In this document: piece by piece, positions 8,579 to 27,059 of the stretch
Layout: every line of letters begins with the position of its first letter
Numbering within the stretch: position 1 is the first letter of the stretch
Assembly: GCA_964532285.1 (NCBI GenBank)
Contig: CAZHHB010000003.1
Coordinates: 3,626-67,625 of the forward strand
Length of the DNA stretch: 64,000 nucleotides
Direction: 5' to 3'
Source: an uncultured Candidatus Saccharibacteria bacterium
GTDB taxonomy: Bacteria; Patescibacteriota; Minisyncoccia; Phycocordibacterales; PALSA-1337
Notes under the pieces: model-generated
What the model was told of the DNA's origin: nothing
Databases searched by the model: none
The model's input: only the letters and a program-made list of their open reading frames with translations
Translations under genes and position numbers: made by a program

Positions 8579-9034
8579 ATGTCGCACATACACGAAAAAA
8601 TAGATTTTACTGTAGAAGTATTTGTCGTTTACAAAGATAAGGTTCTCCTTCGACTGCACGAAAAATATAAAATCTGGCTAAGTGTTGGTGGACATATTGA
8701 ATTGGATGAAGAGTCAAACCAGGCTGCATTACGGGAAGTAAAAGAAGAGGTGGGGTTAGATGTAAATCTTCTTGATGATTTGAGACCATTCGAAAGCGAG
8801 GACGGGGAGTACAAAGAACTAATCCCTCCAAAATTTTTAAATATGAACAGAATAAGTCCGACCCATCAGCATGTAACACTAACTTACTTTGCGAAGACAG
8901 ATAATGATAATATAAAGCCAGAAAGCCCAGAGGATAAATGGAAATGGGTGACTAGTGACGAGTTGGATAAGATGGACCTGAGGCCGAGCATAAAATATTA
9001 TGCTAAGAAAGCTCTTGAGGAATTGGGATCCTGA
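8579..9034 (+). CDS. Nudix hydrolase
   Basis: VGGHIELDEESNQAALREVKEEVGLDV Nudix box. Confidence 0.65.
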   Translation: MSHIHEKIDFTVEVFVVYKDKVLLRLHEKYKIWLSVGGHIELDEESNQAALREVKEEVGLDVNLLDDLRPFESEDGEYKELIPPKFLNMNRISPTHQHVTLTYFAKTDNDNIKPESPEDKWKWVTSDELDKMDLRPSIKYYAKKALEELGS

Positions 9035-9100
9035 TATCTTTCTTGAAATAGTTCCAACCTCGAACCATGCGGTTCACAAATACTTTTGATATAATCAAAA

Positions 9101-9331
9101 TTACCTAGTCGTACCAGTGGTATCCGTCGATGGAGCTGCCGGAAGGGTTACATTTACGGTCGTAACGCCGTTCGGTACCGCTTGTGTTTGCGGAGATGTT
9201 CGATTTCTCAAATAAGGTATACCGAAAATCACTAAAAGAACGACGATTAGTGCTCCAAAGATGATTCCGATAACCACTCCTGCCGATGAATCTTCGGTTG
9301 TGCTGGGTGGTGTATTGATGATTGTAGTCAT
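9101..9331 (-). CDS. Small single-pass membrane protein
   Basis: Hydrophobic stretch VVIGIIFGALIVVLLVIFGI. Confidence 0.3.
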   Translation of the reverse strand: MTTIINTPPSTTEDSSAGVVIGIIFGALIVVLLVIFGIPYLRNRTSPQTQAVPNGVTTVNVTLPAAPSTDTTGTTR

Positions 9332-9416
9332 ATGATTCTATAAATTATGATGATAAACTGTTCTATACTGCTCATAGGAATAGCCGTATAACCAGCGTGA
9401 CCATTACAACGACATC

Positions 9417-9878
9417 ATGAAATGGAAGAAACCACCAACCGCAAAAATATATGAAGCACTGGGAGCCGTTGCTGATGATCGTATTGATCTGATCGGTAAT
9501 ACAGCGAAAGTGTATTCTTCGAGTCGTAATAAATACTATGATGTCAGTTATGATTCGGAAAAGAAGGCAATCATGGCCAACGACAACGGTTCATATTGGA
9601 GGGGTTATCTCGGATACCCATCAATAGCTTTTCTAATGAAATCAGGACTCCTCTCCTATGACCAGGAAATAGCAGAATTACTTAAGGGGATATCCTGGAA
9701 AGATATCAATCAAAAGTTTAAGAATGATTTCGATAAAGCTCTGGAATATATACTTTCACCCAAGACGAATGAACAAGTACACATACTTAAGAATTTTGTA
9801 CAAAAAGTTGAAGATGAGATCGTCTCTCTAGATTTAAGTCTTTTAGGTAAGAAGACTATTCCACCAGACGGCTACTGA
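9417..9878 (+). CDS. Hypothetical protein
   Basis: ORF only. Confidence 0.3.
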   Translation: MKWKKPPTAKIYEALGAVADDRIDLIGNTAKVYSSSRNKYYDVSYDSEKKAIMANDNGSYWRGYLGYPSIAFLMKSGLLSYDQEIAELLKGISWKDINQKFKNDFDKALEYILSPKTNEQVHILKNFVQKVEDEIVSLDLSLLGKKTIPPDGY

Positions 9879-10206: not shown

Positions 10207-12546
10207 ATGAAAAAACTGCCTATTAATGACAGTGAAGCAGAGATCGTCTCTGCGATTCAGGGGAACCAAGTGACGATAATACTTGGAGCAACGGGATCAG
10301 GAAAGACGACACAAATTCCAATAATGCTCTATAAAGCAGGGTTTGCTAAAGAAGGCATGATCGGAGTCGCTCAGCCTCGAAAAATAGCCACGACGGCAAT
10401 CGCCGAGTACGTCGCCGAACAGCTTGGAAGCGTGCTCGGGAAAGTCGTCGGCTACAAAGTCAGGTTTGATAATCTGACTGAAAGACAAACAGCAATTAAA
10501 TTTGTTACAAACGGAGTGTTGCTTCGGGAAATTCAGAATGATCCGCAGCTCACAAAATACTCCGTCATTATGATCGACGAAGCTCATGAACGCAGTCTTG
10601 AGATCGACCTTCTCCTAGGACTGATCAAAAATCTCCTCAAGAAAAGAAACGATCTCAAGCTCGTCATCACTTCTGCGACAATCAATGCAGAAAAGTTCAT
10701 GAATTACTTCAAGTCCGATTCTGATGTGCCCGTAGTACTGGTTGGTGGTCGCATGTATCCTGTCGAGGTGAAATATCTCGATTGGAATCCATACGGCCAT
10801 GAAATGGTATCTGCGGCAGTAGAAATGATTGCTTCAATTCACGCTTCAAACGAGCTAGGTGACGTATTGGTGTTTATGACAGGTAGGGATGATATCTCTG
10901 CCGTTGTAAAAAACCTCACTGTCCGCTTGGGTACGAATGCTGTCGTGATGCCTCTCCATGGAGGAATGGAAGCTACCGCCTATAAAGCCGTGTTCCAGCC
11001 CCATAAAGGAAAACGGAAAATCATCGTGGCAACGAATATCGCTGAGACTTCGCTTACGATCGACGGCATAAGGTTCGTCGTCGATAGCGGCCTCATCAAG
11101 CAACAGCACTTCGATTCCCAGACCGGAATGGTTAGCTTGGATATTGTCGAGCATTCTATGGCTGGATGCGAGCAAAGAAAGGGTCGGGCAGGCAGGACGC
11201 AGCCAGGCGTATGCTACCGTCTCTACTCTGAAAAGAGTCTCAAATCACGGCCGTTGTTCACACTGCCGGAAATCCAACGGATGAGCCTATCAAAAGCGGT
11301 GCTCATCATGGAAAGCATGGGCATTAGTGACGTCGAACATTTTGACCTCATTGATCCCCCTGGCTTTCAAGCATTCAGAGAAGCCTATCAGACTCTCATC
11401 ATCATCGGCGCGAACGATTTTCGCACTAAAAAGATAACTGAGCTTGGCAGAAAGATGGCAGAGTTACCGCTCGAACCATGCATCTCCCGAATGCTCATCG
11501 AAGCGGAAAAATACCGCTGTGTGAAAAGCATTGCCGCCTTCGCAGCATTCCAATCGGTACCGCACGTATTCATGCGTCCGCGAGGAAAGGAGGAATCTGC
11601 TGATCATGCGCACCAACAGCTCATGCACCCCAAGTCGGATGCACTTACGCTCATCACCGTTTGGAACAAGTATATTGCAAACGGCCGAAAACAGGACTGG
11701 TGCTACAAGCACTTTCTGAATTCGCACGCTCTTGAGGAGGTGGAACTCATCTACTCCCAGTTGCTTGATATTTTGGAGCAAAACAATGTTTCGCTTACGA
11801 GTACTATGAACGAGGATGTCATCATGAAGTGCGTCGTCTCTGGGCTCGTATTCAACCTCATTGAGCATGATTCGCGATGGGAATATCGTGGCATTTTCCA
11901 GGGGATGGATAAGATCGGCTTACACCCGTCTTCGTCGCTCTACCGCTTGATGCCAAGGTTTGCTGTCGCTACGAGTCTGGTCCGTACGACCAAGCTCTAC
12001 GCTCGGTGTTGTACAGCCGCACCGGTTGAATGGCTCGCGGAGTTCCTTCCGCAGCTCTTCACCTGTAATGAGCCTATCCTGTCCTCATACACCAAAGGAG
12101 AATCGTATGCAGTCGGAGAGCAATCCATCCTGTTCAAAGGGAGGGGAGTCATCCACCGTAGGGTCAAGATTTCCTTGGAATTGGCAAAGCGCCTCAACGA
12201 ATGGAGAGACACACAGATGAAAGCCAAGAGATTGGTACGCCTGGTGTTTCAAAAAAGCGGTGAGCGATACGTTGCCGATTGCAGTGGTGTGGAAGTTGAA
12301 GTGAGCAAGAGAGGAAAAATACTCTCTGTTCGCACAGATGTTCCATACTACTGCGAAGTGGTTCGTCTCGGGCCTGCAGTATTCGCTCATGTCCAAGAAG
12401 AAGCGATAGACCTTGGTGAAAAAGCCAATATTCTGATTCCGGTTCAAAAGGTTGAAAAGCCTGTTTCGACTGCCGACAATCACACTCAGTCACTCGCCCA
12501 GGAATTGGCGAAGGGTTGGGAATTGGTATTGGAAACGCTCAAATAA
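10207..12546 (+). CDS. ATP-dependent DEAH-box RNA helicase, HrpB/HrpA-like
   Basis: GATGSGKTTQIP (motif I), IDEAHERS (DEAH), TSATI (motif III), QRKGRAGR (motif VI); 779 aa. Confidence 0.8.
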   Translation: MKKLPINDSEAEIVSAIQGNQVTIILGATGSGKTTQIPIMLYKAGFAKEGMIGVAQPRKIATTAIAEYVAEQLGSVLGKVVGYKVRFDNLTERQTAIKFVTNGVLLREIQNDPQLTKYSVIMIDEAHERSLEIDLLLGLIKNLLKKRNDLKLVITSATINAEKFMNYFKSDSDVPVVLVGGRMYPVEVKYLDWNPYGHEMVSAAVEMIASIHASNELGDVLVFMTGRDDISAVVKNLTVRLGTNAVVMPLHGGMEATAYKAVFQPHKGKRKIIVATNIAETSLTIDGIRFVVDSGLIKQQHFDSQTGMVSLDIVEHSMAGCEQRKGRAGRTQPGVCYRLYSEKSLKSRPLFTLPEIQRMSLSKAVLIMESMGISDVEHFDLIDPPGFQAFREAYQTLIIIGANDFRTKKITELGRKMAELPLEPCISRMLIEAEKYRCVKSIAAFAAFQSVPHVFMRPRGKEESADHAHQQLMHPKSDALTLITVWNKYIANGRKQDWCYKHFLNSHALEEVELIYSQLLDILEQNNVSLTSTMNEDVIMKCVVSGLVFNLIEHDSRWEYRGIFQGMDKIGLHPSSSLYRLMPRFAVATSLVRTTKLYARCCTAAPVEWLAEFLPQLFTCNEPILSSYTKGESYAVGEQSILFKGRGVIHRRVKISLELAKRLNEWRDTQMKAKRLVRLVFQKSGERYVADCSGVEVEVSKRGKILSVRTDVPYYCEVVRLGPAVFAHVQEEAIDLGEKANILIPVQKVEKPVSTADNHTQSLAQELAKGWELVLETLK

Positions 12547-12594
12547 AAAAACAAACGCGGAAGGAATCAAATCCTTCCGCGTATTTTATTTTTA
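12547..12594. terminator. Bidirectional rho-independent terminator between convergent helicase and rnc
   Basis: A-run, cgcggaagga-atcaaatc-cttccgcg, T-run. Confidence 0.65.
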
Positions 12595-13269
12595 TATCAG
12601 AGTAAGAGCAACTTTTGCCGCCGCTTTCTCCGCCTTGGCCTTAGTCGACCCTTCACCTTGTGCAATAAATGATCCACCGAAGTAGACACCCATCACATAC
12701 TGCTTATCGTGGTCAGGGCCAGATTCCCGAATAACTTGATACGACGGCGTTATTCCAAGTTTGTCCTGAATCTGTTCCTGAAGCAATGATTTCGGATCGG
12801 TCATTTCTTCCCGAGAGTAATCGAGATTGCGCTTGGTAAGAAGTAGTCTACAGATGACTTCCCGAGCCATTTCCATTCCTTGATCAAGTCGGATCGCGCC
12901 GAGAACTGCCTCGAATGCATTTGCGAGAATCACTCTGCGGGATTTGATATCCTTCTGCTCCCCTCGTGAAAGAAACAGAAAGTCGTTGATGCCAAGGAAG
13001 TCACTGACTTCGCTTGCTCTCTCGGAGTTGACTATGTGTGACCGAATCGCTGTCAGTTCGCCTTCCGTTTTTGTAGGAAAGAGATTGAACAGATGCTCGG
13101 TGACGACGATTTGCAAAACAGCATCTCCCAGGAACTCTAGGCGTTCATTGTGGGGGACATCGTTTGCACGATTTTCATTGATATACGACCGATGGGTTAA
13201 GGCTTCCTTTAGAAGCCGTTTGTTTTTGAAGGTACAACCGATTTTCTGCTCAAGAGATGCGTAGTTCAT
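12592..13269 (-). CDS. rnc: Ribonuclease III
   Basis: RNase III signature ERLEFLGDAVL; C-terminal dsRBD-like region. Confidence 0.9.
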   Translation of the reverse strand: MNYASLEQKIGCTFKNKRLLKEALTHRSYINENRANDVPHNERLEFLGDAVLQIVVTEHLFNLFPTKTEGELTAIRSHIVNSERASEVSDFLGINDFLFLSRGEQKDIKSRRVILANAFEAVLGAIRLDQGMEMAREVICRLLLTKRNLDYSREEMTDPKSLLQEQIQDKLGITPSYQVIRESGPDHDKQYVMGVYFGGSFIAQGEGSTKAKAEKAAAKVALTLI

Positions 13270-13380
13270 CAGCTCTCCTTTCTGAGTGCAAATTACATCA
13301 TTAATAAGTTTTTGTCAAAGAAAAAAACCGTCCCTTTCTAGGTGCACGGTTTTTGATTTAAGGCGTACCGATGGAAGTTT

Positions 13381-14109
13381 TCAGGCCGGCGAACATGCTG
13401 CGCGTGCCGCCTTGAGCTTCTTCTTGAGTTCACCCCCGTCCTCTTTCAGACAGACCGAGATTCTTCCGATTGCTCGGTAGAGGCCGTCCTGATCGAGATG
13501 AAACGCACTCAATATTTCGGGCAAGGTGATTTTCGGAAAATCATCCCAGACCAGAAACACCACTGCGTCCTTGGCGAGCAGAACTTCGGCGGCTGGATCA
13601 CGGCTTTGCAAAAGATCCGCACCCAAGAAGAAACTGGTGACCGCTTTCTGAACCTTCCCGATGACCTGGGTTGTGTTCATGGTCGTAACGACCGAAGCCG
13701 TCTCGATCGGCTCAGGCGGGTTCGGCTTTCCACCTGCCGAAATGGTCTGTCGTAGGGGACTGCTAGGACTTGTGGTCGGCAAGCCCACCTGTCCTCCTCC
13801 TGGTATGGCCGACAACATGAGTACTTCTGTCTTGATCTCCTCGATCAATGTGGCCAGTGCCGTGTCGGTTTTCAGCAGTTCCTTAACTGTCTTTGAGGCA
13901 GTGTACACCGTCATGGATGTGGTACTCAAGGCCTCGCAGGTGCCTTTGAGCGAGCTGCCGAGGGCGTCTTTCAGGACATGCATGACCACTTGCCGGTGAA
14001 GGCGGTCACCTTCTTTGCCTTTGATTACTTCAGGCGTTGTTTTGTAGTGCACTGCAACCATCTCGATCACTTTTTGAGCGATACGAGGGTCTTGAGTCTT
14101 TCTTTTCAT
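13381..14109 (-). CDS. DnaA domain IV-like (Bac_DnaA_C-type HTH) protein
   Basis: N-terminal 90 aa (IAQKVIEMVAVHYKTTPEVIKGKEGDRLHRQVVMHVLKD...) aligns with the DnaA C-terminal DNA-binding domain pattern; rest low complexity. Confidence 0.45.
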   Translation of the reverse strand: MKRKTQDPRIAQKVIEMVAVHYKTTPEVIKGKEGDRLHRQVVMHVLKDALGSSLKGTCEALSTTSMTVYTASKTVKELLKTDTALATLIEEIKTEVLMLSAIPGGGQVGLPTTSPSSPLRQTISAGGKPNPPEPIETASVVTTMNTTQVIGKVQKAVTSFFLGADLLQSRDPAAEVLLAKDAVVFLVWDDFPKITLPEILSAFHLDQDGLYRAIGRISVCLKEDGGELKKKLKAARAACSPA

Positions 14110-14210
14110 ACGATTCTTCTACTTTCTTTTTGTTAAGGTTTCTGTGTGTTTATTGAAAACTTTCCGTCTCTGAACCCAATACTACATACTTTAAGGATTT
14201 TGTAAAGAGA

Positions 14211-14242
14211 TAATAAAAAAGCCATCCGATTTCGCGGATGGC
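14211..14242 (-). terminator. Rho-independent terminator after sigma gene
   Basis: Perfect 8-bp stem gccatccg/cggatggc followed (minus strand) by TTTTTT. Confidence 0.55.
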
Positions 14243-14263
14243 TGTGATTTCGACGCTTGTGCA

Positions 14264-17200
14264 TCAAAGGTTCTGTAATTCAACCAGAAAGCGGACTTTC
14301 TCGAACTCTTGAGTGTAATCCGTCATTAGTTGAATGTCTGATTGATCCAATGTTGGGGTTAGCCTCTCCATTGTGACCATTAGAATCTGACGAACTCTTT
14401 CCCGTGTAATGTCATAGGTTTGCCCTAGAGCTTCGTAAGTCAGAGTTTCCTTTGTGGGGTCTCCAGCATAGCGAAGCCTCAAGATTTCCTTGTGACGATC
14501 TGGTACATCGAGTGCGTCGAGCTTGGCATGGAGCTGTTGCACTTTTTGCTTGAATGGCTTGACTACCTTATCAACAATGCTTTTCAGCTCCTCAACCTGT
14601 TTAGGGAAGAGTCGCTTTTGACATTTTTTCAGCAGTTCAAGATCTGATCCATATGGCTCCAAGGTGTACTGCGATCGAATCAGTCCAATCTTCTCCTTGA
14701 GCGCAGGGTTTAACTCCGCCTGCTTCTCAATGTCTCCGCAAATGACGGATACGTTGCCTGGGTCGCTGAAACCGAACATCCTCGCCATTTCCTGACGCTG
14801 TAGCCCGATGTCGTTGTGTAGCAGGTGCATGGTCACATCCCGTGCAAACTTGCGATTTTTTTGTTCTGCATTAGGTCTTGTTACCGACTTTGCGAACAGA
14901 CTCGACTTCTCGATGTTGAATGCTTGGCTCGTGAGAGTAAGCACTTGATCGACAATCGGGGAGGCTGCCATGTTTACTGTCTCGACAGCCTCTGCTAGTT
15001 GCTCGGTCTCGACTGGCTTTTCTTGTCGCAGACCGCACAGGGCGATGATCTTTTCGATTTCGTCCCGAAGGGCGGGATTCTGATCTATCAACCTTTTGAT
15101 CGATCTATATCCATGCATGGCTACCGTGTGCTCTTTATACTGGAGTGCCTGAGCGATTCCAGGAAAGGAAGACTTTAGCTCTTCCCTCATTATGTAAGTG
15201 CAGACCCATCTCACCCACACGATATCGCGTGGCCTTGTTTCGCCGAGTACGGTCTCTGGAGTTTTGCCATAGACCTTACTTACTATACCGACGATATCGT
15301 CAGGTGTAATGATCACTTTTTCCACGCATGTTCCTTCGAGGTTGGCCACAGGCGTTTTGATTAGCTCAACCTCTCCAAGGTTTGCGGCTGGTCGCCCAGG
15401 TATAATCAGGACACCGGGGACCATCTCGCCTTCATCCGCTTGATCCTGGAACACAATAGATACTTCATCCAGAATTAATGCTTCAGTCGGAGTAGAAAGG
15501 TCAGCTTCACCACAAACAATGTTTTCAAGATCATGGACGCGTTTTAATGCAGCCACGAGCTTCTCATCGTTCATTGAGATACCGTATTCACCGAGTTTAT
15601 TCCAGATTTGACTATTCATCTGGCGAATCCGTTCCCGAGTGACTCCAAAACTTGAAGTCTCTGCGATGGATTCCAAGGTATAATCCTCGGCGTGTCCTTC
15701 GAGTCCGTAGTACATTTTGAAGGCAGTTTTTGCCTTTTCTGACACTGGCAATGCTTTGATTGCTGCCAACAATGTTCGGATGTTCCGAGATGCTATCTCC
15801 AAATCCTCCTTTGCTTCAAGAGCAGTGACGGCAGAAGGGAAACATTGATCCATGATTTTGTCGCCGAAGGTAGTGGTGTCTAAATATCTTGACGAGGAGC
15901 AATAGGCCAATTCCTCCAGAGACACGACGGGGACTTTGAGTTGGTGAAGAATCTTCTTCACCTTGTCAACGTCCTCTTCTGCCTTGGCCGCGACTTCTTC
16001 AAGCGTCGGTTCACGCTGCAATTGCATTCCCAATTCACACGTTATCTTGAGGATCTTATTCAGAGCCTCTTGAGCGTGGACTGGCATTCGAACAAGATCC
16101 CTGAAGTTCTGGATTGCTCGTTGCATGTGCTGTCGAACCCACCATGTTGCATATGTAGTGAAGTGAAATCCTTTTTCGGGATCAAACCTTTCCACTGCAA
16201 CCATGAGACCGATATTGCCCTCCTGGACAAGATCGTCGTAGTCCAAACCTCGGCCCATATAATGCGCGGCGATTTTCATCGACAAACGCAAGTTATGAAC
16301 CACGATGGTGTTGCGGGCTTCGTAGTCGCCGTGCATGTGCCACCGGCGTGACAATTCCAACAAGTGTTCGTGTTTTAAGAACTTGTGATTCTTGGCTACA
16401 CGATAGTACGGATTAGTGACACCGGATTCTCGATCGAAGATAAACTTCGGTATGAATTCTCCGTCGGGATCAGCATTCTCGCTTTCCTCACCATCGATTT
16501 CGACTTCTCCGCCTTGTTCCATTTCCAGCAGGGCTTCTTTTGAAGGCTCCTCAGAAACGGTTTCGCTAATGCCGGTTGAGTTGAACAATGCCGGTAGCTT
16601 GCCTTTGTTGATCGGAGCTTCATCGGAACGGCGAGAGTAGGAAGTCACTGGACTCCGTGACTCGGGTTTTTTGTAGTGAACTTCCCCGATCACGATTTTG
16701 ATGTCGATGCCACTCAGAAGTTGAGTGATCCATCGCATTGCTGGTCGGAGCTTCTCACTATCCTGCGAAATTTCCGCAGGGATGAGGGCGCCGATTTGTT
16801 GAGGCGAGATGCGACCTTCGTCTTTGGCTGCTAGAAGAATTCCAAGTGCTTCGGGTTTAAGCCCGTGCTCCTGTAGAATTTTGGCATTCAAGAAAGGCGA
16901 CTCATGACCTTCTCCTGCATATTGCGGTCCCTTAGCTACTGCTAAGAGAGGAACAGTCTGTTCCTCGACTTTCGGTTGCGGTTCCGGCTTTTGAGCCGGA
17001 GCTGCGGGCGCGACAGCAGGGGATTGGACAATATGTGTATGAGTGTGGACGATGTTGAATGTAACAATGATGTGGAGATTTTGCAGTATTTTTTTAATTT
17101 CCTGCAACACCTCCGCCATTTTCTGCCGGTCTTTGGCTAGGGCGCCAGAAACCATTTCACTGATTTCTTGAGGGGTGATTGCCCCTCTTTCCTTGGCTCG

Positions 17201-17293
17201 GGTGAGAGTTTCCTTGGCATGGGGCTTTAACCCCCATCGTTCAAGTACAGCCTCATCAAAACCAACGAGTGCGTGGTCGATTCGGTCTATCAT
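14264..17293 (-). CDS. rpoD: Sigma-70 family factor (RpoD-like, 1009 aa) with duplicated region 1.1, two region-4 HTH units and two DnaA-domain-IV-like modules
   Basis: Region 2: HLLELSRRWHMHGDYEARNTIVVHNLRLSMKIAAHY ... DLVQEGNIGLMVAVERFDPEKGFHFTTYATWWVRQ. Region 4.2: LESIAETSSFGVTRERIRQ and again LTYEALGQTYDITRERVRQI. Two ~60-aa N-terminal repeats resemble sigma70 region 1.1. Two internal segments align with DnaA domain IV (...KEHTVAMHGYRSIKRL). Confidence 0.75.
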   Translation of the reverse strand: MIDRIDHALVGFDEAVLERWGLKPHAKETLTRAKERGAITPQEISEMVSGALAKDRQKMAEVLQEIKKILQNLHIIVTFNIVHTHTHIVQSPAVAPAAPAQKPEPQPKVEEQTVPLLAVAKGPQYAGEGHESPFLNAKILQEHGLKPEALGILLAAKDEGRISPQQIGALIPAEISQDSEKLRPAMRWITQLLSGIDIKIVIGEVHYKKPESRSPVTSYSRRSDEAPINKGKLPALFNSTGISETVSEEPSKEALLEMEQGGEVEIDGEESENADPDGEFIPKFIFDRESGVTNPYYRVAKNHKFLKHEHLLELSRRWHMHGDYEARNTIVVHNLRLSMKIAAHYMGRGLDYDDLVQEGNIGLMVAVERFDPEKGFHFTTYATWWVRQHMQRAIQNFRDLVRMPVHAQEALNKILKITCELGMQLQREPTLEEVAAKAEEDVDKVKKILHQLKVPVVSLEELAYCSSSRYLDTTTFGDKIMDQCFPSAVTALEAKEDLEIASRNIRTLLAAIKALPVSEKAKTAFKMYYGLEGHAEDYTLESIAETSSFGVTRERIRQMNSQIWNKLGEYGISMNDEKLVAALKRVHDLENIVCGEADLSTPTEALILDEVSIVFQDQADEGEMVPGVLIIPGRPAANLGEVELIKTPVANLEGTCVEKVIITPDDIVGIVSKVYGKTPETVLGETRPRDIVWVRWVCTYIMREELKSSFPGIAQALQYKEHTVAMHGYRSIKRLIDQNPALRDEIEKIIALCGLRQEKPVETEQLAEAVETVNMAASPIVDQVLTLTSQAFNIEKSSLFAKSVTRPNAEQKNRKFARDVTMHLLHNDIGLQRQEMARMFGFSDPGNVSVICGDIEKQAELNPALKEKIGLIRSQYTLEPYGSDLELLKKCQKRLFPKQVEELKSIVDKVVKPFKQKVQQLHAKLDALDVPDRHKEILRLRYAGDPTKETLTYEALGQTYDITRERVRQILMVTMERLTPTLDQSDIQLMTDYTQEFEKVRFLVELQNL

Positions 17294-17461
17294 TTTGTGC
17301 TCCTGTGGTTAATTGTTAATGTGCGAAAACTAAAAACACATTACATTACATATATATACTTGTCCAGTCACGGGGGAGCTTTACAGATATCTATTTTAAT
17401 GATATGAAGATGGTTAGATACTTTCAGTTTTTTGTAAATAAACCCTCAACCAAAGGACGAT

Positions 17462-19471
17462 ATGTACACACCTTATGACTATCAAGAAGGGTGTCTTGTT
17501 GTCTTAAAGACAACTCGCATCCAAGGAAAAACCGTCGCACTCATCGTGATGGCGAGCGGTCTTGGAAAGACCGTGACCGTTGCCTTCGATGCTAAAGAGT
17601 GGCTCAAGGAAAACAAGGGCAGGGTTTTATATCTCTGTCATCAGAACGATATTCTCGGCCAAGCTCAGCAGACGTTCGAGTCAATCCTCGGTAGCGGTTA
17701 CACTTACGGATTCTATACGGGTAGGGAAAAAACAGCCCACGGGGCAGATTTTCTGTTCGCCTCCTTCCAGACCATGGCGAAGAATACTCAAAGGGTGTTT
17801 TCGTCAGACGAATTCGCATACATCATTGTTGACGAGAGTCACCATTCGCAGGCGCCGTCTTATCTGAAGATCGTGGAATACTTCAAGCCGAAATTTCTGC
17901 TTGGAGCGACTGCCACGCCAGATCGTGCCGATAGTCTCAATATCCGCTCGGTTTTCGGCGAGGAAGTTTACAATCTTCCTCTCGAGAAAGCTCTTGCACA
18001 GGGACTGCTCACTAGAGTGAACTATCGCCTCGTCACGGACGAAATATCTCTCGACGAGGTCAACAGGACTAACGTCGAAGATTGGTCTCTCGAGGATATC
18101 GACCACAATGTCTTCATTCCCAAACGGGACGAAGAAATTTCCGCCTCAATCGATCGGCATGCGGCTGAACTTGAAGATCAGAGGATCATTGTCTTTGCGA
18201 GCACTATAGCTCGGGCCGAGCAGTTGGCCCAGCGCATTTCGGGAAGTATAACCATTCACTCCGAAGTTCCAACCAAGGAGAGATTGGTCAGGCTCGAAAT
18301 GTTTCGCCAGGGAATGGTTCGTGCGGTGATCACTGTTGATTGCTTTAACGAAGGTATCGACATACCAGAGGCTAATGTAATTGTGTTTCTGCGTTCGACG
18401 ACCTCGATGAGGATATTTTATCAACAGCTTGGTCGGGGCCTACGCCTCTCTCCAGGGAAAGATAAAGTTATCGTCCTCGATTTCGTAGGAAATGCAGAGC
18501 GACTCGTCATGCTCAAGGAACTTGCTGATGCAATTGGTATTCACTATTCGGAGGAAATGGCTGCTCGTGTAAACAAGCGGCAGAATCCCTTCGATATCAA
18601 ATTCGATGAAAAGGCTCAGGGCGTTCTGGATCTCGTCAAACGCATTCGCGTGAAACGAGTCGCTGATGTGCCTGATCTGCTCTTAGAGTATTCACCCCGC
18701 AACCCATTGTCTGCATCGAGTATCTCAGCCAAAAGCTGGAAAGATGTCTGGTGGAAATGCGGAAGATGCGAACATGAATGGCAAGCCAGCCCTGCCGCTA
18801 AAGCATATGGGAGGCAGTGTCCCAAATGTGAAGGACAAGTAACTGCGGAAAATAATCTTGCAGTTCTCCGTCCAAACCTCGCTAGGCAATACACAAGCCG
18901 AAATCTTCTCCCTGCAGATCAAATAATAGGGAAGACGAAAGAGATAGCTTGGTGGAAATGCCCTAAGTGCTCCTATGAATATGGGGCCAGACCTTACAGC
19001 CGCATATACCGAAGCGATGGCTGTCCTGCATGTGCGGCAGAAATGCCTGCATATAAAGACAACTTGGCGTTTCATTCACCCAAACTAGCACTTGAATACT
19101 CTTATACCAACATGCTCTCACCGGAACATGTCGGCTTCAGAACTACATTCGGGCGTTGGTGGATTTGCTCGGACTGTGGCAACAGCTATCAAGCGAGCGC
19201 GCTAGCTAGGGATAATGGAAAAGGCTGTCCAAGATGCACCGCTAAGGTCCCCACGAAAGTGGTCAACCTTATAACGACCCACCCTTTCCTTGCGGAAGAA
19301 TATTCCTCCAGAAACAGGAAATCGGCAGACACGATTCTTGCTGATACCGACGAACAGTTGTGGTGGGTATGCTCTTCTTGCGGCCGTTATTGGCAAGCAA
19401 GTGGAAGGGAACGACTCAACGGAAAGATTTGTCCCCATTGCCCCAAGCTGATACCGGTTTCGGTTGAGTAA
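17462..19471 (+). CDS. SF2 helicase (XPB/ResIII-like) with four C-terminal CxxC-CxxC zinc-ribbon repeats
   Basis: MASGLGKTVT (motif I), VDESHH (II), GATATPDR (III), QQLGRGLR (VI); C-terminal repeats WWKCGRCEHEW...CPKC x4. Confidence 0.75.
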   Translation: MYTPYDYQEGCLVVLKTTRIQGKTVALIVMASGLGKTVTVAFDAKEWLKENKGRVLYLCHQNDILGQAQQTFESILGSGYTYGFYTGREKTAHGADFLFASFQTMAKNTQRVFSSDEFAYIIVDESHHSQAPSYLKIVEYFKPKFLLGATATPDRADSLNIRSVFGEEVYNLPLEKALAQGLLTRVNYRLVTDEISLDEVNRTNVEDWSLEDIDHNVFIPKRDEEISASIDRHAAELEDQRIIVFASTIARAEQLAQRISGSITIHSEVPTKERLVRLEMFRQGMVRAVITVDCFNEGIDIPEANVIVFLRSTTSMRIFYQQLGRGLRLSPGKDKVIVLDFVGNAERLVMLKELADAIGIHYSEEMAARVNKRQNPFDIKFDEKAQGVLDLVKRIRVKRVADVPDLLLEYSPRNPLSASSISAKSWKDVWWKCGRCEHEWQASPAAKAYGRQCPKCEGQVTAENNLAVLRPNLARQYTSRNLLPADQIIGKTKEIAWWKCPKCSYEYGARPYSRIYRSDGCPACAAEMPAYKDNLAFHSPKLALEYSYTNMLSPEHVGFRTTFGRWWICSDCGNSYQASALARDNGKGCPRCTAKVPTKVVNLITTHPFLAEEYSSRNRKSADTILADTDEQLWWVCSSCGRYWQASGRERLNGKICPHCPKLIPVSVE

Positions 19472-19479
19472 GTTGTTTA

Positions 19480-19525
19480 TTTGAATCACGGGCCCCGTTG
19501 CTTACGCGCGGGGTCTTTTTGTACA
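19480..19525 (+). terminator. Probable rho-independent terminator
   Basis: ccccg...cgggg stem followed by tctttttg. Confidence 0.4.
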
Positions 19526-19621
19526 TTTTTATTGACATACTAATGAAATTATGATATCCATTACCCTAGAAACTTTGAAAAATAGGAGCTTAAAAACCTC
19601 CGCAAATAGAAAGAAAAACCT

Positions 19622-21616
19622 ATGTTTGAATCCAGATTCTATCAAGACGATTGCCTACGGATCCTTCAAAAGGTTCGACAAAAAGGCATACTTCGGGCGC
19701 TCGCTATAATGGCAAGTGGTCTCGGAAAGACGGTTACGATGGCCTTTGATGCCCTTAGTTTTCGAAAGCAATTTCCGAAGGCTCGGGTGCTCTACATTTG
19801 TCATCAAAATCAAATATCCAATCAGGCTCGTGGCACCTTTGAAGCGATCAACGGCAACAGTTGTACATATGGTTATTACAACGGCATCGAGAAGATCGCA
19901 CACTCAGTAGATTTCCTGTTCGCTTCATTTCAGACAATGAGAACGCACATGAAAAACTTTCGTCCAGACGAGTTCGACTATGTGGTTGTTGATGAAAGTC
20001 ATCACACATACGGCGACACTTTTTTGGATGTAGTGACCTACTGGAAGCCCAAGTTCCTGTTAGGGATGACGGCGACACCTGACCGCACTGACTGTCAAGA
20101 TATACGCAAAGTTTTTGGTCAGGAGGTATTCTACCTTCCGCTCGAAGAAGCACTTGCTCAAAGCCTGCTCACCCCGGTCGATTATCGCTTGATGACGGAT
20201 GAAATTCGACTCAAGAAGACGATCGAGTCGGCTGAACGGCGCTTGAGTTTGAAGATGCTTAATCGCACGATTTTTGTCCCAAGAAGGGATGAAGAAATTG
20301 TACGAATTATCCATAAACACTCACAAGAACTTCAAGAACCGAAGATTATCATCTTCTGTCAGTCGATTCAGTACGCTGAAGAATTGGCAAAGATCATGAC
20401 TGGGTCAATGACGATTCATTCGCGCGTATCGCTCAAGGAGAGGATTGTTCGAACAGAATTGTTCCGCCAAGGGCTCATCACTACGTTACTGACTGTGGAT
20501 GTTTTTAACGAAGGTATCGACATACCGGAAGCGAATGTTATCGTGTTCCTTAGGACCACAACATCTCACGTAATATTTTTCCAGCAACTCGGGCGCGGTC
20601 TGCGTCTGAGTGCTGGAAAGGATCGTGTGGTTGTTCTCGACTTTGTGGGTAGTTGCGAGCGAGTCAAAACCATCTACACTCTGTGGGACAATGTGAAAGC
20701 TCGCAGACAAAAAGTCATCAGTGCCACACCTGCTGCGAACCGAAACATGGGGAATCATACTTCTCGGAATATTGATCCCTTTTACCTCAATATGGGCGTC
20801 GTTGACTTCGAGGAGAAAATCCTCAAGGTGGTCGATATCGTTCGCAGGATCAATGACGGGTTTACTCGGGAGGAATGCATCTTGATGCTTCAGGCTTTTG
20901 CCGCACGGCTAAAGAGATCGCCCACACAAAAAGAAACCCATAAAAACAGACAGATGCCGAGTCAGTCTCTATATTGTAGGTACTTTGGTAGCCACACTGA
21001 GGCATTGAAGGCAGCGGGGCTTGCAGTCAATCAGATTCGAGATGTAACCGATGAAGAACTTCTTGAACAACTCCGAGGTGTCCAACAGAGGCTCGGTCAC
21101 TCACCTTCTCAGGGAGAACTCGCACAGGCTTCGAAAGACGGCTTGTGTTCTTGTGAACCTATGTTCCGTGAGCGCTTTGGATCGTTAAACGAGGCGCTTA
21201 AGGAAATTGGCTCAACACCTGCTCGGCAAGTTGGTCTCACAAAGATGGAGCTTGTCGCTCAGCTTCAGAAGCTGAAGGAGAAGGTCAAACGAGTTCCAAC
21301 GGTTGAGGATCTGATTGAAGCGTCAGCACAAAAGAAGATGGCAAGTTATTCTGTTTTCCGTAAGCACTTCAAGACCTGGAACAATGCACTTAGAGAAGCA
21401 GGCCTTACCGATAAAAAGGTCGAGGTACCTCACTATACCGAGGCAGAGTTGGTGGCTGATTTGAAAAAAGCCAACAGTATTCTGGGGCATGCACCAACGA
21501 CTGGGGATATGAATCGTCTTCGTAAGCAAGGGAAATTGAAAGTGGGAAGTCTCGGGGCTTTCTACTGGCGATTCAAGACTTGGAATAATACCCTCAAAGT
21601 CGCCGGATTGAAATAA
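19622..21616 (+). CDS. SF2 helicase (XPB/ResIII-like), paralog of the upstream gene, with four C-terminal homing-endonuclease-associated-type helical repeats
   Basis: Same motif set (MASGLGKTVT, VDESHH, GMTATPDR, QQLGRGLR); C-terminal ~45-aa repeats ending ...FKTWNNALREAGL x4. Confidence 0.7.
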   Translation: MFESRFYQDDCLRILQKVRQKGILRALAIMASGLGKTVTMAFDALSFRKQFPKARVLYICHQNQISNQARGTFEAINGNSCTYGYYNGIEKIAHSVDFLFASFQTMRTHMKNFRPDEFDYVVVDESHHTYGDTFLDVVTYWKPKFLLGMTATPDRTDCQDIRKVFGQEVFYLPLEEALAQSLLTPVDYRLMTDEIRLKKTIESAERRLSLKMLNRTIFVPRRDEEIVRIIHKHSQELQEPKIIIFCQSIQYAEELAKIMTGSMTIHSRVSLKERIVRTELFRQGLITTLLTVDVFNEGIDIPEANVIVFLRTTTSHVIFFQQLGRGLRLSAGKDRVVVLDFVGSCERVKTIYTLWDNVKARRQKVISATPAANRNMGNHTSRNIDPFYLNMGVVDFEEKILKVVDIVRRINDGFTREECILMLQAFAARLKRSPTQKETHKNRQMPSQSLYCRYFGSHTEALKAAGLAVNQIRDVTDEELLEQLRGVQQRLGHSPSQGELAQASKDGLCSCEPMFRERFGSLNEALKEIGSTPARQVGLTKMELVAQLQKLKEKVKRVPTVEDLIEASAQKKMASYSVFRKHFKTWNNALREAGLTDKKVEVPHYTEAELVADLKKANSILGHAPTTGDMNRLRKQGKLKVGSLGAFYWRFKTWNNTLKVAGLK

Positions 21617-21637: not shown

Positions 21638-21667
21638 GGGGCTGGAGTAACATCCGGCCCCTTTTTA
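21638..21667 (+). terminator. Rho-independent terminator
   Basis: ggggctgg-agtaacat-ccggcccc + ttttt. Confidence 0.6.
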
Positions 21668-26093: not shown

Positions 26094-27059
26094 GTGAAAG
26101 CAAAAACTCTGGACATTAAAAAAATGGGCATCATACAGATGCTCCGTGCAATATTCAGTCTCCAAACTCCCGAAGGTTCGGGGTCAAAAGAAAAACAGAA
26201 GGACGGAGAAAGACAGTGCGGAGTCATCACTTGTGCTTTGTCACGCCGTCTCTATGCCGCCAACTCAATCATGGTTGATCATATTAATGGTCTCGCGAAA
26301 AAACACGCTCACTTGCACGATGATGGCAGGAAGCAGATACCTAAACACGACTGTGAAGCTTTCGCAAATCGGATAAAGCGACTTCATGCCCGTCAGAAGA
26401 TCCTCAGTGGCTTGCTGTGGCAATCTGTCGGGGAGAGTTTTCCGCAATCTGCCATCAACAGTGTGGGCATCCGAGATGGTTGGATGTTGGTTGATCGGGA
26501 AGGTAAATGGAATGATCACATCCCATTCATCAACAAACCGAACAGTATCGCGGACAACTATTTGAACCGCGTGATGAAAATCATCTGTGGCGACTCCGTT
26601 TCTTCCGCCAGGGTGATTGCGGGGGAAGGTTTCGGCCCTGTGACTGCCGGCGAGGAAGTCGTCGGCTGTCTCGATGACGAGAAGGTTCGGAGAATCTGGA
26701 TGATCCTTTCGGATATCAGAAGTGAAGTGACGAAAGAACTCCCGACCGGTCTTACGGATGATAACTTCAGGGAAGTCTTCGGAACCTTGACGATCAATGA
26801 GATAGATCGTCTGCGATTGCTGTTGGCACGCTGCGATAAGCTGGTTGAGATTACGACCGCCCTATTTTGGTGTGGTGTTCGGGATACTGTTCCCGCCGCG
26901 TCAGACATTCCGGATATTGGCATTCGCCAGGGGTGGAAGGTCGTCAAGTGTGTTCCCGAGGAGGATTACGGTGGCGTAAGGATGGTCATGACCCCCATGG
27001 GTCCTGCCATTTCAGTTCCCAGAACTCTGGTGGAATCACTCATGCGTCTGGGGCAGTAG
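26094..27059 (+). CDS. Hypothetical protein, GC-rich relative to neighbours, with internal repeat (GIRDGWMLV / GIRQGWKVV)
   Basis: ORF with consensus promoter; no recognisable family. Confidence 0.35.
   Translation: MKAKTLDIKKMGIIQMLRAIFSLQTPEGSGSKEKQKDGERQCGVITCALSRRLYAANSIMVDHINGLAKKHAHLHDDGRKQIPKHDCEAFANRIKRLHARQKILSGLLWQSVGESFPQSAINSVGIRDGWMLVDREGKWNDHIPFINKPNSIADNYLNRVMKIICGDSVSSARVIAGEGFGPVTAGEEVVGCLDDEKVRRIWMILSDIRSEVTKELPTGLTDDNFREVFGTLTINEIDRLRLLLARCDKLVEITTALFWCGVRDTVPAASDIPDIGIRQGWKVVKCVPEEDYGGVRMVMTPMGPAISVPRTLVESLMRLGQ

Follow-up and report, generated by a model that had tools for sequence, protein, structure and literature searches.

Adjacent SF2 helicases with unrelated C-terminal repeat arrays lie beside a sigma-70-family gene in Candidatus Saccharibacteria

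A 64,000-nucleotide stretch of contig CAZHHB010000003.1 (assembly GCA_964532285.1), referred to here as the window, comes from an uncultured Candidatus Saccharibacteria bacterium and encodes two neighbouring superfamily 2 (SF2) helicases, H1 and H2. From the open reading frame (ORF) list and Pfam, H1 (17462..19471, plus strand; 669 aa) ends in an array of four DUF4379 zinc modules, and its paralogue H2 (19622..21616, plus strand; 664 aa) in one of four HNH_repeat helical modules. Both ORFs lie where an earlier reading of the DNA letters (the original prediction) had placed them, and its central proposal, that one SF2 core was duplicated in tandem and bears unrelated repeat arrays at the C-terminus, is upheld. 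It is proposed here, with about even confidence, that H1 and H2 are nuclease-free DNA translocases, anchored through their tail arrays, which serve a housekeeping process that is most likely linked to transcription. An SF2 helicase is itself a known kind of protein; what is new is a widespread domain architecture in an unexpected, conserved neighbourhood. Neither the architecture nor its linkage to a sigma gene was described in the literature searched, which covered the array families, SauUSI/DUF3427, Patescibacteria helicases and Saccharibacteria sigma factors.

Pairwise alignment of the H1 and H2 cores by BLASTP gave 52% identity and 70% similarity over 411 aa (E = 1e-141), confirming the paralogy of the adjacent pair. 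The four motifs previously quoted as shared, MASGLGKTVT (residues 30–39), VDESHH (123–128), TATPDR (150–155) and QQLGRGLR (321–328), were found in both proteins. The SF2 motifs Walker A, DExH, motif III and motif VI are all intact in H1 and H2, and are invariant across 23 family members. In H1, the motor core spans residues 1–350 (17462..18511, plus strand), as judged from the motif residues invariant in that 23-sequence alignment and from a match to SauUSI residues 227–563. Within this core the alignment places the Walker A segment ASGLGKT at 17552–17572, DESHH at 17831–17845, TATP at 17909–17920 and QQLGRGLR at 18422–18445, all on the plus strand. Pfam matched ResIII (2.2e-33), Helicase_C (5.3e-15) and DUF4379 (2.6e-45, in four stretches) in H1, and ResIII (2.7e-29), Helicase_C (1.1e-14) and HNH_repeat (PF18780; 3.6e-49, in four stretches) in H2. 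The nearest genome match of H1 is an uncultured Candidatus Saccharibacteria metagenome-assembled genome (83% identity), and those homologs that bear names come from Patescibacteria. H1 and H2 are anciently duplicated chromosomal genes of a Saccharibacteria (Patescibacteria) bacterium.

Among solved structures, both motors are best matched by residues 226–563 of SauUSI (7CLG; 190 bits for H1 and 176 bits for H2), followed by RadD (6JDE; 97 bits for H1), a type I R subunit and archaeal XPB. The H1/H2 motor falls in the same clade as the motor of SauUSI, a type IV restriction enzyme. Correspondingly, the top PADLOC model was mREase_IV (PDLC03658; 190 bits for H1 and 178 bits for H2), matched at profile positions 226–562 of 953 and thus confined to the motor. 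Other profiles scored far under their cutoffs for H1 and H2, respectively: 120 and 91.5 bits against 720 for RadD (NCBIfam NF053632), 52 and 41 bits against 610 for XPB (NCBIfam), 36 and 34 bits against 328.7 for rad25 (NCBIfam), and 109 and 106 bits against 550 for EcoAI-R, a type I R subunit. The Pfam profile ERCC3_RAD25_C, with a cutoff of 27, scored 31.5 for H1 and 26.4 for H2. The SWI2_SNF2 profile (PF18766) scored 39.7 and 41.9 bits against a cutoff of 26.7, yet these scores lie under that of ResIII on the same region. The former description of the cores as XPB/ResIII-like accordingly holds for ResIII, which Pfam confirmed, whereas XPB is the weakest core similarity and SauUSI the closest. 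That a type IV restriction model can match strongly while covering the motor alone is a caution for defence-gene prediction.

Pfam searches found no nuclease domain in H1 or H2, the HsdR nuclease being likewise absent, and no match to DUF3427. Both ORFs start 0–3 residues ahead of the motor, at the first start codon past an in-frame stop, and therefore no N-terminal extension is possible. Relatives from Firmicutes and Bacteroidetes have motors that are 35–38% identical, in proteins of ~1050 aa with 307–358 extra N-terminal residues that include an HKD motif; read off the sequences by eye, they appear to share the SauUSI architecture of a PLD nuclease, a motor and a DUF3427-like C-terminus. In SauUSI, the ATPase is activated once the C-terminal domain recognises its target, and it then drives directional translocation on DNA; the N-terminal PLD nuclease also forms the dimer interface (PMC7913695). 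SauUSI has the closest SF2 motor by sequence, and in SauUSI, H1 and H2 alike a nucleic-acid-recognition region lies C-terminal to the motor. In contrast with SauUSI, H1 and H2 lack the N-terminal PLD nuclease and the DUF3427 target-recognition domain, with repeat arrays in the latter's place, and they are set among housekeeping genes. RadD (YejH) is, like H1 and H2, an SF2 motor without a nuclease, but its C-terminal domain is absent from both, which have repeat arrays instead. XPB/Rad25 (ERCC3) and HsdR share the ResIII and Helicase_C superfamily with H1 and H2, as the weak ERCC3_RAD25_C and EcoAI-R matches reflect; H1 and H2 differ from them in falling far below the XPB and EcoAI-R cutoffs and in having no HsdR nuclease domain.

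The zinc array of H1 (18662..19468, plus strand) comprises four treble-clef modules at residues 401–467, 468–536, 537–604 and 605–669, as defined by Pfam, repeat alignment and AlphaFold. Each repeat is 65–69 aa long, follows the pattern 'WW.C..C ... GCP.C' and contributes two CxxC motifs. The four CxxC...CxxC repeats proposed earlier are borne out by the resulting eight CxxC motifs and by the DUF4379 profile, which scored 152.9 bits against a gathering score of 24.5. The array has a net charge of +9, and its AlphaFold model reached a predicted local distance difference test (pLDDT) value of 93.4; the models of both arrays used alignments of 46–50 sequences. The only solved structures matched with Foldseek were DUF4379 proteins of the kinetoplastid mitoribosome (6yxx_E2, E = 4.9e-14; mS66). 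Over 170–240 residues, the array also matches the phage endonuclease families phrog_681 and phrog_559 (HNH). Related CapR/DUF4379/DUF723-like modules have been described as probable DNA-binding modules of homing endonucleases (PMC12350094). A homolog search with the zinc array alone returned seven matches, one of them fused to MUG113/T5orf172; the low number reflects the word index that was used.

The helical array of H2 (20852..21613, plus strand) consists of four units of four helices each, at residues 411–470, 471–534, 535–598 and 599–664, according to the Pfam HNH_repeat match and AlphaFold. The HNH_repeat profile (PF18780) scored 165.4 bits against a gathering score of 26, the AlphaFold model has a pLDDT of 92.4, and the net charge of the array is +14. 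Single HNH_repeat units superpose on TetR-type helix-turn-helix (HTH) domains. The original prediction was correct in seeing four helical units, although these are ~60–66 aa long rather than ~45 aa, and the shared ending ascribed to them, FKTWNN.L..AGL, is present in repeats 3 and 4 only; the first two repeats have FGSHTEALKAAGL and FGSLNEALKEIGS in its place. Both basic arrays probably bind nucleic acid, and most probably DNA.

Both array families are associated with homing endonucleases or mobile elements, as was rightly noted before for the H2 repeats; the zinc array matches phrog_681 and phrog_559. The arrays of H1 and H2 resemble those of homing endonucleases (NUMOD-like, CapR/DUF4379/DUF723-type, HNH_repeat and INT_rpt) in being modular and variable in copy number. 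They differ in being joined to an ATPase motor and not to a nuclease or integrase, and in being positionally conserved within a clade rather than variable. At locus L088, the helicase pair adjoins a gene for DNA polymerase III alpha (12314–16852, minus strand) that contains an intein with a LAGLIDADG homing endonuclease, so homing-endonuclease modules occur in the same genomes.

A sample of 253 motor sequences showed that the family is widespread in Patescibacteria and bears three interchangeable tails: DUF4379 alone in 101 sequences, HNH_repeat in 115 and INT_rpt (PF14882) in 28, with two further hybrids of zinc and INT modules. Array copy number ranges from 1 to 9 and is rarely below two, with a mode of four for all three types. 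Source annotations of the homologs are generic, such as 'zinc-ribbon domain-containing protein' and 'DEAD/DEAH box helicase family protein'. The three array types interleave on a neighbour-joining tree of the motors, and this simple tree therefore points to repeated exchange of arrays between motors. One protein from a Logan contig (P0088; 740 aa) has, on a single motor, a pair of DUF4379 modules and then three INT_rpt units, and looks like an intermediate in such exchange.

Exchange is also seen at a single position. At loci L002 and L005, H1 is 83–85% identical to the window H1 in the motor and 80–83% identical over the full length, and the gene in the H2 position carries an INT_rpt array where the window has HNH_repeat. 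These observations make the module swapping suggested by the original prediction real. A simple tail-only swap in H2 was partly rejected: identity of the INT-type H2 genes to the window H2 is ~54–84% up to residue ~350 and then ~14–30%, a fall from ~75% to ~25% overall, and their cores are themselves more diverged (~75% identity). Furthermore, the window H2 motor is nearest to those of L085 and L086, whose H1 is more distant, so that the H2 and H1 trees disagree. Recombination has therefore probably replaced H2 in part or in full, and exchange of a larger segment, or of the entire gene, is as possible as a swap of the tail only.

Within the clade, the repeats themselves are stably maintained. 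Each of the four repeats best matches the repeat in the same position of its orthologs, down to ~46–50% array identity; identity is 46–88% between same-position repeats across orthologs and 27–37% between positions. H1 is also more conserved (80–85%) than the adjacent sigma gene (59–68%) and the neighbouring gene p242 (52–68%). Positional orthology of the repeats and conservation of H1 above its neighbours therefore argue for purifying selection on four distinct modules, as judged from these comparisons, rather than for diversification or concerted evolution. Divergence between the genes is too great for dN/dS, synonymous sites probably being saturated. The term 'diversifying', applied to the pair by the original prediction, finds no support in the same observations.

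The gene divergent from H1 is a sigma-70-family gene of 1009 aa (14264..17293, minus strand) with Pfam matches to Sigma70_r2, r3, r4 and Bac_DnaA_C; the intervening 168 bp (17294..17461) are as originally reported. The cluster of this sigma gene followed by divergent H1 and H2 is kept at six related loci, L002, L005, L085, L086, L087 and L088, even though H1 is as little as 50% identical among them and their outer flanks are not alike. The tandem pair is not universal: it is limited to the clade formed by the window and these six loci, and more distant members are single. Among the latter, helicases at L090, L091, L094 and L095 are divergent from an adjoining sigma-70-family gene, and those at L092 and L104 are co-directional with it. 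At locus L093 dnaG comes first, then rpoD, whose 405-aa product spans regions 1.1 to 4, then a 115-aa ORF and the helicase. Altogether, a sigma-70-family gene stands beside an array-bearing helicase at 13 of 34 independent loci as well as in the window, in either orientation and with any array type, compared with 1 of 136 loci (1.67 Mb) among nuclease-bearing relatives; both counts are raw and carry no correction for phylogenetic relatedness. Genes of information processing also adjoin the helicases, namely uvrB directly 3′ of H2 at L005, priA at L092, and dnaE with rnhB at L088. Because sigma-70/rpoD genes and information-processing genes recur as neighbours, the process served is most likely a housekeeping one linked to transcription; the transcription link, drawn from gene adjacency to sigma, is judged the most likely, with modest confidence.

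In the proposed mechanism, the array of H1 or H2 would bind a conserved nucleic-acid target, most probably DNA. By analogy with SauUSI, target binding would license the motor to translocate along duplex DNA at the expense of ATP. With no nuclease attached, the output would be mechanical, in the displacement or remodelling of proteins on DNA, and the two paralogs would work on two different targets. Processes that could be served in this way include the displacement or recycling of RNA polymerase and the remodelling of promoter or template DNA. XPB, too, is a DNA translocase without a nuclease and is tied to the initiation of transcription. A more specific version of the proposal, which is improbable in its full detail, would make the family rpoD-linked, nuclease-free translocases of the SauUSI type whose interchangeable arrays, of the homing-endonuclease type, direct them to defined DNA sites, where they act with sigma and RNA polymerase, either as a bacterial counterpart in function to XPB/TFIIH translocation on promoter DNA or as a recycling factor like RapA. 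The system would then be lineage-wide in Patescibacteria, with H1 and H2 as two specialised versions.

Several observations weigh against a housekeeping translocase linked to transcription. Inheritance of gene order, with no functional coupling, could account for the adjacency to rpoD. At 12 well-flanked Patescibacteria loci there is no sigma gene nearby and the neighbours are housekeeping genes of mixed kinds: Peptidase_M1 in three cases, UvrC, T2SSE and N6_N4 methylase in two cases each, and RpoC, AlaRS, CTP synthase, ThyA and DHFR in one case each. The nearest characterised relatives of the motor are restriction enzymes. Array swapping, combined with the distinct GC content of the block that contains the genes, would be compatible with a mobile or conflict-related element as well. 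Finally, the ligand may be RNA: the solved DUF4379 domains sit only in mitoribosomes, which are RNA–protein particles.

Three other readings have been weighed against the transcription-linked translocase. H1 and H2 might be genome-maintenance motors akin to RadD, XPB or PriA, acting in DNA repair or replication restart, with arrays that recognise damaged or branched DNA. RadD is the second-best relative among solved structures and in NCBIfam (97 and 120 bits), XPB/Rad25 also matches, and uvrB, priA, dnaE and rnhB are found beside family members, with UvrC at 2 of the 12 distant loci. However, the scores are far under the cutoffs (120 against 720 for RadD and 52 against 610 for XPB), repair-gene neighbours are sporadic whereas sigma recurs at 13 of 34 loci, and the arrays derive from sequence-reading endonuclease modules and not from known damage sensors; a repair role is thus unlikely, if still worth serious consideration. 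A role in RNA or ribonucleoprotein remodelling, in which the arrays would have structured RNA, for instance rRNA precursors, as their ligand and the motors would partner RNase III and the HrpA-like helicase, must be regarded as quite improbable. In its favour, solved DUF4379 domains are found only in kinetoplastid mitoribosomal proteins and assembly factors, and the RNase III gene (rnc) and the HrpA-like gene belong to the block that is conserved between the window, L005 and L085–L087; one homolog (P0071) also has a faint match to the RIG-I C-terminal domain. Against this, the motor belongs to the ResIII/SauUSI/HsdR/RadD/XPB group of DNA translocases, with DEAD-box matches an order weaker, and the nearest phage relatives of the array sit in DNA endonucleases. 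Moreover, the cluster lacks rnc and hrpA at L002, L088 and L090–L095 but retains sigma there.

The original prediction likened the pair to diversifying defence or repair sensors. Read as defence or restriction-like sensors, the SauUSI-type motors, having no nuclease, would detect foreign DNA by means of exchangeable arrays and call in an effector whose gene lies elsewhere. The mREase_IV and SauUSI matches, the exchange of arrays between lineages with its zinc and INT hybrid (P0088), the compositional distinctness of the block and a DNA methylase near 2 of the 12 distant loci can all be cited for it. The PADLOC matches, however, cover the motor alone, rpoD linkage is conserved, and purifying selection is indicated by the positional conservation of the repeats and by H1 being more conserved than sigma. 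A genomic-context survey of ~30 loci found no defence island and no conserved nuclease or effector partner nearby; the neighbours were housekeeping genes, and H1 and H2 have no nuclease domain of their own. The survey also showed that, outside one clade, homologs occur singly and that they lie in conserved housekeeping contexts, even though the repeats do match nucleic-acid-binding families, as the original prediction had anticipated. Housekeeping neighbours and sigma adjacency therefore favour a housekeeping pair over a defence system. An immunity role is unlikely, and the sensor version of it is the least supported of the readings considered.

Many Patescibacteria keep one or two helicases of this family, of ~650–850 aa, despite very small genomes, and the function is therefore probably important. 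The family shows a restriction-type motor that has lost its nuclease and gained modular arrays which are normal to homing endonucleases and integrases. Adjacency to sigma-70/rpoD offers a concrete lead, open to testing, towards a factor in transcription or genome maintenance that would be peculiar to this large uncultivated radiation, some members of which, among the Saccharibacteria, are by now amenable to genetics. The significance would be high if a connection with RNA polymerase were true.

H1 and H2 are, as far as the sequence of the intergenic regions indicates, separate transcription units. A hairpin followed by a U-run lies 3′ of H1 (19490..19521, plus strand; stem GGGCCCCG..CGCGGGGUC, minimum free energy −18.1 kcal/mol) and resembles an intrinsic terminator. 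Hairpin and U-run are found at the same position in L002, L085, L086 and L088, with differing stem sequences. Beyond it, a putative H2 promoter (19532..19560, plus strand) combines TTGACA, a 14-nt spacer and TGATATCCA, which contains the extended −10-like TGATAT, a consensus match; a TTGACA/TTGAC element occurs 3′ of the terminator at 5 of 5 loci compared (the window, L002, L085, L086 and L088). The conserved terminator and promoter between the genes imply separate transcription, and an H1–H2 operon was rejected on these grounds. A strong intrinsic terminator with a 9-bp stem, seven pairs of which are GC, followed by TTTTT, lies 3′ of H2 (21638..21661, plus strand).

Upstream of H1, a promoter-like element pairs TTTACA (17380–17385, plus strand) with TGA-TATGAA (TGATATGAA) after 17 nt, a candidate identified by its sequence. 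Just ahead of the start codon, on the same strand, is a leader composed of TTTTTGTAAAT (17429–17439) and CTCAACCAAAGGA (17445–17457), which is common to the window, L002, L005 and L088 and partly present in L085 and L090. This leader could be a regulatory or translational element. A scan of the window for both parts rejected it as a general motif: TTTTTGTAAAT is not enriched, and the sole exact copy of CTCAACCAAAGGA is the one 5′ of H1. Scans of the window gave no tRNA genes and no Rfam matches.

The sigma gene itself varies in form. In the 1009-aa protein, a Bac_DnaA_C HTH is inserted at residues 664–732, a second region-4-like segment lies near the C-terminus at 931–978, and two N-terminal segments look by eye like region 1.1. 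Among orthologous neighbours, sigma length ranges from 405 to 1057 aa, and at L087 the gene is represented by two ORFs. Identification of the sigma gene as MzaA of the Mza defence system was rejected (224 bits against a cutoff of 800, with only sigma regions 2–4 matched). Downstream of sigma in the window is p242 (13381..14109, minus strand), whose 242-aa product contains a weakly matched DnaA_C-like HTH (Pfam Bac_DnaA_C, 5.9e-4, under the cutoff). Orthologs of p242 lie beside sigma in the closer relatives L002, L005, L085 and L086, and its N-terminal HTH weakly resembles sigma residues 667–747 (E = 0.001). Profile matches identify the remaining members of the block as rnc, encoding RNase III (12592–13269, minus strand), and an HrpA-like helicase gene (10207–12546, plus strand).

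The six genes from the HrpA-like gene to H2 (HrpA-like, rnc, p242, sigma, H1 and H2; 10207–21616) have a GC content of 0.47–0.54 and a third-position GC content (GC3) of 0.49–0.61, compared with 0.36–0.41 and 0.29–0.38 for the flanking genes. The same contrast is seen at L086 and L005 and is absent from relatives of higher overall GC; the outer flanks of the block are not syntenic between loci. Saccharibacteria may have exchanged the block by transfer or recombination, or its composition may be constrained locally. A 321-aa ORF with no Pfam match (26094–27059, plus strand; GC 0.51, GC3 0.56) is a further GC-rich gene, set in a part of the window that is low in GC.

Individual loci show further rearrangements. 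At L005, in the genome of the closest species, sigma and H1 are separated by a 312-aa ORF (8668–9606), four low-GC genes, one of them aspartokinase-like, are inserted between H1 and H2 (11870–15506), and uvrB follows directly after H2 (17643–19682). The complete 1.29-Mb Moraniibacteriota genome with locus L089 (14849–16849) encodes a single DUF4379-type helicase that has no sigma neighbour, and a second, distant ResIII helicase of 666 aa lies 4.6 kb downstream, past a MerR/copper-ATPase cluster.

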